A DNA stretch of 17,920 bases, from assembly GCA_964014485.1 (NCBI GenBank), contig CAXHAT010000161.1, positions 1 to 17,920 of the forward strand, read 5' to 3'. The stretch's first letter is position 1, and each line of letters opens with the position of its first letter. The position numbers and the translations under genes were made by a program. The notes under the pieces are model-generated. The model worked only from the letters and a program-made list of their open reading frames with translations. It did not search any database and was not told the DNA's origin. The DNA comes from an uncultured Deferribacteres bacterium (GTDB lineage: Bacteria > Zhuqueibacterota > Zhuqueibacteria > Zhuqueibacterales > Geothermadaptataceae). This document shows positions 1 through 1,590 of the stretch, one piece after another.

Positions 1-335
1 TGGCCTTTTTAAACTGTTGTTTTTATAAGCGTTTAAGCGGCGAAAAATTTTTGGTAAAATTTCCGTTGTGTAACTGCATGATTTCTTTATCTTTAAGCCA
101 TGTCAATTCCGACAGCGATTTCTGCTAGTTTTTTAGCAGGCGATTTTCCGGGCTTAAGCTTTTGAAAAAATGAGACTTAAGGTAAAAAGTGCTGTCTGTT
201 CCTTGAAAATAAAGAACTTAGCCCATGAAAATTGGAAAAGTATGTGTTAATTTTTTAGCAGAAAACGGAGTTGTCGAAAACGGCCATTTTGGGCCTTTAA
301 AAAACAAGCGTTTACGCTGTACGCTGGCGTACAGA
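1..335 (+). promoter_or_regulatory. CRISPR leader (probably truncated by the window edge)
   Basis: AT-rich, apparently non-coding stretch directly abutting the first perfect repeat. It contains several IHF-like motifs (WATCAA-N4-TTR-like). The degenerate repeats lie at the opposite end of the array. Confidence 0.85.
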
Positions 336-1298
336 GTGGAAGCCTACCGAAGATCACGAGGTGAATTGATACAATTGCCGGTGAGCTTCACCGAGCTTTC
401 GGCGCGTGGAAGCCTACCGAAGATCACGAGGTGAATTGATACTTGCGTTTTGCTTTGCAGCGTCAGAGTTATTGTGTGGAAGCCTACCGAAGATCACGAG
501 GTGAATTGATACATGTGTACACAGTCAGCCGACTTGATCTTGCGTCGTGGAAGCCTACCGAAGATCACGAGGTGAATTGATACATCCGCCGCTTATGCTC
601 GTGAAAGCCAGTCCCATCGTGGAAGCCTACCGAAGATCACGAGGTGAATTGATACGCAGAATTTTTGACCAGCAGAGCTGTAGGATCTTGTGGAAGCCTA
701 CCGAAGATCACGAGGTGAATTGATACTTTCTATTGGTCGTGCAGAGTTCGCACGCCAACCGTGGAAGCCTACCGAAGATCACGAGGTGAATTGATACTTT
801 TTAAACCACTGAGTGAGTGACCCGGTGCCGGGGTGGAAGCCTACCGAAGATCACGAGGTGAATTGATACACACATCCTTGTGCGGATCGAACAGCTTCCT
901 GCGTGGAAGCCTACCGAAGATCACGAGGTGAATTGATACTTTTTGTCTCGTGAGACGTGAGACATGGGTTTGGTGTGGAAGCCTACCGAAGATCACGAGG
1001 TGAATTGATACCCACCGACTCCTCATTAGCAGCAACATCCGCCACGGTGGAAGCCTACCGAAGATCACGAGGTGAATTGATACTTCATTGCTTGTGAGGG
1101 CGGTTACCGTGACGTGTGTGGAAGCCTACCGAAGATCACGAGGTGAATTGATACGTCCACACATCTTCGAACAGGATTGAGTCACCAGGTGGAAGCCTAC
1201 CGAAGATCACGAGGTGAATTGATACGATCGTTTGTGTTTCATACTTAACTTCGGCTGCAGGGTGGAAGCCTACCGAAGATCACGAGGTGAATTGATAC
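336..1298 (+). CRISPR. CRISPR array, 14 identical 37-bp repeats and 13 unique spacers of 33-36 bp
   Basis: Repeat GTGGAAGCCTACCGAAGATCACGAGGTGAATTGATAC starts at 336, 406, 476, 547, 619, 690, 761, 833, 903, 975, 1047, 1118, 1189 and 1262. The 3' end ATTGATAC resembles the ATTGAAAC-type 8-nt handle of Cas6-processed class 1 arrays. The leader on the left gives + orientation. Confidence 0.99.
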
Positions 1299-1590
1299 TT
1301 GGGCGGAAGATGGGGAACGGAGACCGGAGGACGTTTTGAACTTGCCGAAGATTTTACGCGCAGCTTGAATTCCGTCTTCCATTCTCCGTTTTCCCTTCCT
1401 CCACAATGCGTGAACCTGCCGAAGATCACGAGGTGAATTGAGCCTTTGACGGAAGATGGATGAGCGGAGATCGGAGGACGTTTTGAACTTGCCGAAGATT
1501 TTACACGCAGCTTGAATACCGTCTTCCATTCTCCGCTTTCCTTCCTCCACAATGCCTGAGCCTGCCAAATTTCATGAGGCGAATTTAAAC
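1299..1590 (+). repeat. Array trailer: two diverged 146-bp units, each a 109-nt hairpin plus a degenerate CRISPR repeat
   Basis: Units are 1299-1444 and 1445-1590. Degenerate 37-bp repeats lie at 1408-1444 (30/37 identical to consensus) and 1554-1590 (25/37). Repeat-like cores at 1333-1372 and 1480-1519 contain TGCCGAAGAT. The arms flanking each core are reverse-complementary. Confidence 0.9.

Follow-up and report, generated by a model that had tools for sequence, protein, structure and literature searches.

A probable intervening-sequence-type hairpin cassette behind the last repeat of a type III CRISPR array

Introduction

What occupies the slots behind the last perfect repeat of a CRISPR array when they hold long hairpins in place of spacers? 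The question is raised by a contig of an uncultured Deferribacteres bacterium (CAXHAT010000161.1; the whole stretch of 17,920 nucleotides analyzed is referred to as the window), in which the array is followed, at 1299–1590, by two tandem inverted-repeat inserts, each trailed by a degenerate repeat. A model-made reading of the letters alone (the original prediction) took the paired segments for complementary pseudo-spacers that form a structured RNA released by Cas6. We find that the arms of this module are inverted arrays of degenerate tandem heptamers and not former spacers, and that the same design brackets genes of the PF05635 (23S_rRNA_IVP, here IVP) family at other loci of the genome as well as in the trailers of related CRISPR arrays. 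On balance, 1299–1590 probably consists of two tandem copies, lacking an open reading frame (ORF), of a hairpin cassette of the intervening-sequence (IVS) type lodged in the last spacer slots.

Results

A hairpin module in register with the array

The repeats of the window end in ATTGATAC, with the leader upstream and degenerate repeats downstream, and the plus strand is therefore the sense strand of the CRISPR RNA (crRNA). The last perfect repeat (1262–1298) is succeeded by two 146-nt units, each made of a 109-nt rod hairpin and a decaying repeat, so that the locus reads as follows:

1–335, plus strand: AT-rich CRISPR leader, with a promoter-like match at 203–232
336–1298, plus strand: CRISPR array of 14 perfect 37-nt repeats and 13 spacers of 33–36 nt
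1299–1333, plus strand: purine-rich arm A of module 1, built of the degenerate heptamers GGAAGAT GGGGAAC GGAGACC GGAGGAC (lag-7 self-match 0.54); pairs with arm B
1334–1372, plus strand: centre of module 1, R*, a repeat-like loop that loosely prolongs the stem
1373–1407, plus strand: pyrimidine-rich arm B of module 1, the complement of arm A (lag-7 self-match 0.54)
1408–1444, plus strand: degenerate CRISPR repeat R′, with 7 mismatches and the tag ATTGAGCC
1445–1553, plus strand: module 2, the second 109-nt hairpin, whose 80-nt core is 94% identical to module 1
1554–1590, plus strand: last and most decayed repeat, R″, in register, matching the consensus at 25 positions when aligned globally with gaps

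The trailer units keep the register of the array, with a period of 146 nt (2 × 73 nt) and repeats that decay towards the end; array and repeat alignments confirm the coordinates and the twofold order of arm, R*, arm and repeat that had been proposed from the letters alone. Register and repeat decay are also features of an ordinary decayed trailer. The segments between the repeats of such a trailer would, however, be unique, aperiodic and unrelated, and here the arms are heptamer-periodic and complementary to each other. A Logan contig from public DNA data (three DNA runs, all from one study) spans 1356–1743 without any difference from the window, and the agreement of this independent contig indicates that the tandem arrangement is no artefact of the present assembly. 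A scan of the window against Rfam returned zero families at the gathering score, and no rRNA.

The genome (8.4 Mb in 465 contigs) holds five arrays of this repeat family, and the module recurs at the trailers of three of them, a point on which the original prediction is supported. Two copies follow the array of the window (C161), at least two follow the array on C457, where the contig ends within the second, and C60 carries one good copy plus a diverged one whose centre has been replaced and whose arms still pair (−41.9 kcal/mol). In each of the five copies, the first base behind the repeat is also the first of the module. The claim that both inserts measure exactly 109 nt holds for the window and does not extend to the other two arrays, whose copies are 117, 124 and 102 nt long. 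Four of the five copies are closely related (82–94% identical), and full copies occur only at the three trailers when the whole genome is searched by BLAST. With the unit as query (E ≤ 10), the same search returned nothing but modules, CRISPR repeats and hits no longer than 36 nt, short seed-type matches not being specifically searched; the longest of these short matches are heptamer-type tracts, and beyond such short arm-like tracts BLAST found no other sites in the genome complementary to the arms.

The leaders of C161, C60 and C111 and a contig end of C113 are 91–94% identical. Given this identity, the C161, C60 and C111 arrays descend from one leader–array–trailer unit, from which the three module-bearing arrays inherited the module, and its presence in all three is to be counted as a single event; the spacers adjoining it differ from array to array. 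Upstream of the array on C60 lie genes for Cas10, several RAMP proteins, a Csx1/APE2256-type protein and Cas6 (the last at C60:12504–13580), with Cas1 downstream of the module, and from these cas genes beside the same repeat family the CRISPR system is of type III. Genes downstream of the arrays are co-directional with them (cas1 and others on C60, a peptidase gene in the window).

Heptamer arrays pair into long rods

Taken together, the five copies have ten arms, whose mean lag-7 self-match is 0.574, compared with 0.345 ± 0.027 in shuffled arms, and none of 2000 shuffles reaches the observed value; lag 14 gives 0.53, and most other lags give 0.24–0.39 (lag 15: 0.45). The 13 real spacers of the array have a lag-7 self-match of 0.262. 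Arms A and B are thus not the paired pseudo-spacers that had been proposed, since they are degenerate heptamer arrays with a lag-7/14 periodicity missing from the real spacers. The larger length differences among copies are multiples of 7; the C457 copy carries a 7-nt GGAAGAT duplication in an arm, and the first C60 copy carries a 14-nt duplication.

The interval from the last perfect repeat through the trailer (1262–1600, 339 nt) has a predicted fold of −116 kcal/mol, compared with −92.6 ± 4.8 kcal/mol in 100 shuffles (z = −4.9, 0 of 100 as good), in line with the expectation that the module should be stable against shuffled controls; its minus strand is nearly as stable (−113.6 kcal/mol, z = −3.9). 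Taken singly, module 1 (1299–1407) folds at −47.6 kcal/mol (z = −5.6) and module 2 (1445–1553) at −41.5 kcal/mol (z = −5.0), and across all five copies in the genome the minimum free energy ranges from −41.5 to −51.7 kcal/mol per copy (z = −3.6 to −5.6), with a consensus of 35 base pairs. The two 22-nt arm segments said to pair at 20 of 22 positions, counting G-U, do so in the fold, as 8 + 12 pairs flanking a 2-nt internal loop. The module thus has two of the traits by which we recognize an IVS-type cassette, namely inverted arms of ~7-nt tandem units and arms that pair into a long rod.

Sequence differences between copies offer a further view of the pairing. Module 2 differs from module 1 by one compensatory change, A-U to G-C, at pair columns 27/99; the sense fold is more stable than the antisense fold in four of the five copies of this genome; and among related copies G-U appositions exceed A-C appositions, 27 versus 11 (p = 0.014).

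The same design accompanies IVP genes across the genome

This genome contains 271 tandem arrays that have a period of 7 or 8 and three or more copies, 32 of them in close inverted pairs. Contig ends are touched by 54 of the 271 (e.g., C9:1–55, C29:1–55, C30:1–63 and C250:1–54), which indicates that these arrays break the assembly and that their true number is higher. Nine matches to PF05635 were found, seven of them above the curated cut-off, and a period-7/8 array lies within 300 nt of six of the nine. The flanks of these six genes form hairpins of purine arm, loop and pyrimidine arm with a heptamer unit specific to each locus, and the IVP gene on C39 has rods of the module's own GGAGAAC-type heptamer family on both sides. 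A further rod of the GGAGAAC family, at C21:24300–24560, lies apparently in frame in a sensor kinase/receiver linker, as judged by eye. The original prediction presumed that the hairpin was no generic repeat scattered through the genome; this stands for the exact 109-nt sequence, confined to arrays, and comes close to failing for the hairpin class, which is scattered and tied to IVP genes. The many near-identical copies that would mark a single-sequence dispersed repeat, of the miniature inverted-repeat transposable element (MITE) or repetitive extragenic palindrome (REP) type, are not seen.

A comparable build exists in heterocystous cyanobacteria, whose short tandemly repeated repetitive (STRR) heptanucleotide sequences are dispersed, intergenic tandem 7-nt repeats with a locus-specific unit. 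The module shares this dispersed 7-nt build, whereas its arrays are paired as inverted arms, and we know of no link between STRR sequences and CRISPR arrays.

Hairpins of the same build stand behind related arrays

Relatives of the locus were traced through the Cas6 protein, which has homologues in 12 other genomes of the 167 in the phylum, including a fragment in G024 that was left out thereafter. The resulting tally covers 15 trailers in six genomes, this genome included; it leaves out G019:C154, G016:C123 and G016:C150, whose arrays reach contig ends, and a small array in G087, and in G014, G010 and G023 no array lay beside cas6 within the 5–10 kb taken. A heptamer hairpin stands at the trailer in nine of the 15 cases, with one partial case, four without and one unclear. 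The hairpins of the relatives have the same build and a different sequence, start directly after the last repeat and, at three trailers, come with a co-oriented IVP gene. The expectation that the module would reappear in related arrays is therefore borne out for build and place and not for the exact sequence, and the recurrence of same-build hairpins at the same position points to more than trailer decay.

In G002, which belongs to the same family as this genome (Cas6 42% identical; large RAMP genes and cas6 upstream), 24 good repeats and one repeat with an altered 3′ end are followed by six AT-rich heptamer hairpins of 104–111 nt. Variant repeats separate these hairpins at a period of ~147 nt, the two cleanly delimited inserts being 111 and 104 nt long, and in a seventh unit the arms enclose a PF05635 ORF (E = 1.1 × 10−25). 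In G011, which represents a second family within the order, the last repeat runs straight into a hairpin of 144 nt whose arms are GGGCAAT/CTTGCCC; beyond it come one more repeat, additional arms of this kind, and a co-oriented IVP gene with a hairpin behind it. Hairpins with GGGGCAA/CTTGCCC arms stand directly after ...ATTGAAAC in G011, G013:C7, G016:C59, G016:C143 and G017:C99, and full or 17-nt partial repeats lie between the hairpins of the last four. The co-oriented IVP protein of G016:C143 is 87% identical to that of G011. Among the other trailers, G013:C17 has a purine arm only, G016:C45 and G016:C21 have no hairpin, and at G017:C123 the contig ends, its last 88 nt, behind the last repeat, being three tandem copies of a ~30-nt unit (AGGGCCA..ATTCCCCCAC) that is not heptamer-built.

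The IVP protein of G002 shares 32–34% identity over 44 aa with the G011/G016 pair and is closest to the C9 copy of this genome (43%); as it is of a different lineage from that pair, trailers were colonized at least twice. The module of this genome is a third heptamer family at the same trailer place. With about one heptamer array per 30 kb here, a rough estimate makes three separate chance placements within a few bases of a terminal repeat very unlikely.

Searches for the exact sequence gave little beyond this genome. Neither the repeat nor the module had a match in nine other genomes of the family and 28 of the order, and the 166 other genomes of the phylum contained no module-length match, with arm-like hits of 22–45 nt in 13 of them. 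Exact-pattern matches were zero in genome_contigs and metagenome_contigs (two patterns each) and in viral_contigs; a phage search found none, and plasmids gave one 29-nt hit at chance level.

Two observations on the relatives may be recorded here. At G016:C143:7000–8260, the IVP cassette and its hairpins lie between two 17-nt copies of the repeat 3′ end, on an 8-kb contig that carries no full array; these copies could be a target duplication or repeat leftovers. Separately, at three of nine phylum loci inspected (L028, L031 and L034) arm-like purine tracts lie at most ~10 nt past the stop of the upstream stop-to-stop frame, the distance at L027 being ~85 nt, and single arms may prefer gene 3′ ends.

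The rod covers the guide position of the last-repeat RNA

The available text of one report states that in Class 1 systems an extraneous crRNA (ecrRNA) arises at the last repeat (PMC13187072), and the cited ecrRNA work, in the portion available, calls the fate of the Class 1 species unexplored. A hairpin that suppresses such an RNA would have to cover its guide, and the module starts at position +1 after the repeat; since the rod begins at this first base, the guide of a Cas6-made last-repeat RNA would be base-paired. Over the 33 nt that directly follow the last repeat, the predicted paired probability is 0.84 for C161 and 0.82 for C60. Real spacers, 97 in number, average 0.59; none of them reaches the C161 value and one reaches that of C60. 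The values for C457 and C185 are no valid test, one being cut by the contig end and the other falling on a real spacer. The notion that all five arrays hide the ecrRNA guide is ruled out by the C111 trailer, which scores 0.47.

Discussion

Kinship with intervening sequences of 23S rRNA

A close likeness to the module among known systems is the IVS of 23S rRNA. In Coxiella burnetii, as the available text of one study describes, such an IVS carries an S23p ORF and is excised by RNase III (PMC4990558). In both elements complementary ends pair into a long stem, which may or may not come with a small ORF for a four-helix bundle, both are lodged in a strongly transcribed, processed and untranslated RNA gene, and in relatives of the window locus a PF05635 gene lies between or beside the arms. 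The module differs in that its host is a CRISPR array, it has no ORF, it is tandem and interleaved with repeats, and cutting by RNase III would be expected by analogy. It is no 23S rRNA IVS in the strict sense of an insertion in helix 25 or 45.

Genes of this family have been noted in cas loci before: the available text of Zhang, Doak and Ye (2014, PMC3936711) reports 18 23S_rRNA_IVP genes, often near cas4 or cas6, with III-B among the types, and a figure legend of a 2023 survey lists 23S_rRNA_IVP (PMC10910872). The protein family is the same as at our loci, whereas in their available portions these reports treat the gene only and mention no heptamer hairpins, trailer position or repeat interleaving. 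In our literature search, hairpins with heptamer arms were described neither around IVP genes nor in the trailers of CRISPR arrays.

Structures at array ends are known in other CRISPR types. In type II-C a hairpin locks away the ecrRNA guide (Feussner et al. 2025, PMC12080349), and leader–repeat hairpins occur in II-A and Cas13 systems (PMC13187072), according to the available text of each. These share with the module a structure placed where an extra repeat would yield a useless guide RNA. As described in those portions, however, the II-A, II-C and VI-B hairpins are 8–12 bp long, of local sequence and at the opposite end of the array, whereas the module, a rod of 30–40 bp in a type III array, belongs to a class of dispersed elements and has a putative function. 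CreA and other crRNA-like regulators, as in CreTA (PMC9458426; bioRxiv 10.1101/2023.03.03.530964, in their available text), are alike in that degenerate repeats flank a non-spacer insert near CRISPR-Cas. The module differs from these as a self-paired rod that is not a free guide, in a type III rather than a type I setting, with no partial target or toxin gene found; BLAST gave no partial complementarity to a promoter or gene of the genome of the kind that marks CreA, short seed-type matches not being specifically searched.

How the cassette may live on the array

We envisage that the module is transcribed as the 3′ tail of the precursor crRNA (pre-crRNA). A Cas6 cut in the last good repeat would then leave an RNA with an 8-nt tag whose "guide" is locked in an imperfect duplex of ~30–40 bp, and an RNA locked in this way would be unable to serve as an ecrRNA. 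The rod would also be a likely RNase III substrate, by analogy with the IVS stems of 23S rRNA; the genome has an RNase III gene at C21:44448–44834. The pre-crRNA would make a tolerant host for such a cassette because, like pre-rRNA, it is strongly transcribed, untranslated and processed, and the cassette would most likely be a hitch-hiker on this RNA, with any benefit to the array secondary. The unit of hairpin plus repeat was probably doubled by unequal recombination between repeats. The exact placement behind the repeat could reflect an insertion preference, capture as an outsized "spacer", birth of the array beside a cruciform, or selection. A bolder proposal, which we advance tentatively and rate as rather doubtful, is that IVS-type cassettes specifically colonize the slot behind the last repeat of type III arrays and live on the pre-crRNA, with Cas6 and RNase III excising them and the array gaining a cap that disarms the ecrRNA.

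Several observations weigh against reading the module as an IVS-type cassette that acts through its RNA. No PF05635 ORF is present in 1299–1962 or at the C457 and C60 trailers, and for this reason we file the module as an ORF-less derivative, short of a full cassette; such a gene is enclosed by or adjoins the arms at the G002, G011 and G016:C143 trailers and on C39. The trailers of C111 and C185 are without the module, and the pairing at the guide position of C111 is not unusual. The compensatory change affects just one of the 35 consensus pairs. The second-family relatives fold more stably in antisense, so a sense-strand role at the RNA level is not established, and the sense-strand G-U bias is weakened as proof of RNA-level selection; the G-U excess could equally reflect the G-rich and T-rich composition of the arms or mutation bias. 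A scaffold of spacer, repeat and spacer still fits, with R* repeat-like and the arms spacer-sized, and no intrinsic terminator (a G+C-rich stem with a U tract) occurs at any site in 1–2100.

Alternative explanations

That the hairpin, of whatever origin, is an adaptive trailer cap, kept to trap the ecrRNA, to shield the 3′ end of the pre-crRNA from exonucleases or to insulate downstream genes against read-through from the array, we consider unlikely, although much of the evidence bears on it. Two families share the architecture, at nine of 15 trailers, although its sequences are quite unlike, always with its left junction exactly at the repeat 3′ end, and the guide region is far more paired than real spacers; one compensatory and several G-U-tolerated changes, the co-directional downstream genes and the type II-C precedent (PMC12080349, in its available text) point the same way. 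Yet this genome has two arrays that share repeat and leader with the others and manage without the module, and two of the three IVP-bearing relatives have hairpins beyond the IVP gene, where they are unable to act on an ecrRNA. Many sites outside CRISPR arrays bear the same hairpins, in one case apparently within a coding region, and there is no U-tract terminator. A related idea reverses the order of events, with a cruciform-prone hairpin there first and off-target Cas1-Cas2 integration beside it seeding the array. Cas1-Cas2 favours repeat borders and cruciform-adjacent sites in vitro, and the hairpins are always at the trailer, the oldest end, abutting a repeat. Full or partial repeats also lie between the hairpins and beyond the IVP cassette, however, and the three arrays that share leader and module by descent amount to one event, which leaves this nucleation scheme very improbable in our judgement.

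The original prediction, of old complementary spacers A and B (stemming, for instance, from one protospacer acquired in both orientations) around a decayed repeat that yield a Cas6-released regulator, decoy or toxin/antitoxin RNA, would lead one to expect a small RNA of ~146 or 73 nt with AUUGAUAC or AUUGAGCC at its 5′ end. The arms, at 34–36 nt, are spacer-like and the 73-nt register is kept; R* has 25 identities to the repeat, with a global score reached by 1 of 2000 shuffles and a local score reached by 31 of 2000; and spacer acquisition in the opposite orientation is documented for E. coli type I-E (PMC4027179, in its available text). R* also holds a 10-codon frame, MNLPKILRAA, behind GGAGG; as judged by eye, four of the five copies retain it, differing by a single synonymous change. 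That frame is missing from the diverged C60 copy, however, and its Shine-Dalgarno sequence is buried in the stem. Real spacers lack the heptamer periodicity of the arms, and related heptamer tracts flank an IVP gene and recur elsewhere in the genome. The arm lengths and centres of the relatives are out of register, as in the 144-nt insert of G011; the G002 centre matches its repeat only in reverse orientation (33 of 2000 shuffles), and that of G011 shows no similarity to the repeat (312 and 1366 of 2000 shuffles). The searches of viral contigs, phages and plasmids gave no protospacer, and nothing supports a dedicated CRISPR regulator, decoy or toxin–antitoxin RNA, with neither a target nor a toxin gene found in the genome by BLAST. 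We regard this account as improbable. Least credible of all is a neutral relic of a single inverted trailer duplication, unselected and unconnected with IVP cassettes: with four of five copies close relatives there is little power to show selection, but other genera carry hairpins of independent sequence at this position, heptamer periodicity marks the arms, and the diverged copy on C60 keeps its stable fold despite a replaced centre.

We therefore favour an IVS-like hairpin cassette hosted by the CRISPR array over a new CRISPR-derived RNA. Should cassettes of this type indeed colonize the slot behind the last repeat specifically, the IVP–CRISPR association, long unexplained, would gain a physical basis, and CRISPR arrays would become a second natural host RNA for intervening sequences. 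The locus and its relatives also locate the association, placing the cassette at the first base after the last repeat, in array direction and often among leftover repeats. Excision of the rod from pre-crRNA, neutralization of the Class 1 ecrRNA and the origin and movement of heptamer-armed cassettes are open to testing, and annotators can mistake such trailers for odd spacers or for a new RNA derived from CRISPR.

Further features of the arrays and the window

Three ORFs that overlie the module, of 107 and 160 aa on the minus strand and 45 aa on the plus strand, were rejected as non-coding, since the copies differ in length by 7, 8 and 14 nt, which disrupts these frames.

In the 33-repeat array at C111:22786–25100, repeat spacings recur with a period of 997 nt (14 units), as judged from coordinates only, which suggests either an internal tandem duplication of 14 spacer–repeat units or an assembly artefact.

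Directly downstream of the trailer, a MITE-like dispersed repeat occupies 1768–1941 of the window, with inverted ends at 1769–1787 and 1921–1939. About 147 nt of it (1768–1914) match very many sites on many contigs at ~70–90% identity (473 BLAST lines for three queries together), and a 27–29-nt piece recurs ~32 nt further on. The depth of metagenome contigs exceeds 1000 at 1802–1855, within this repeat.

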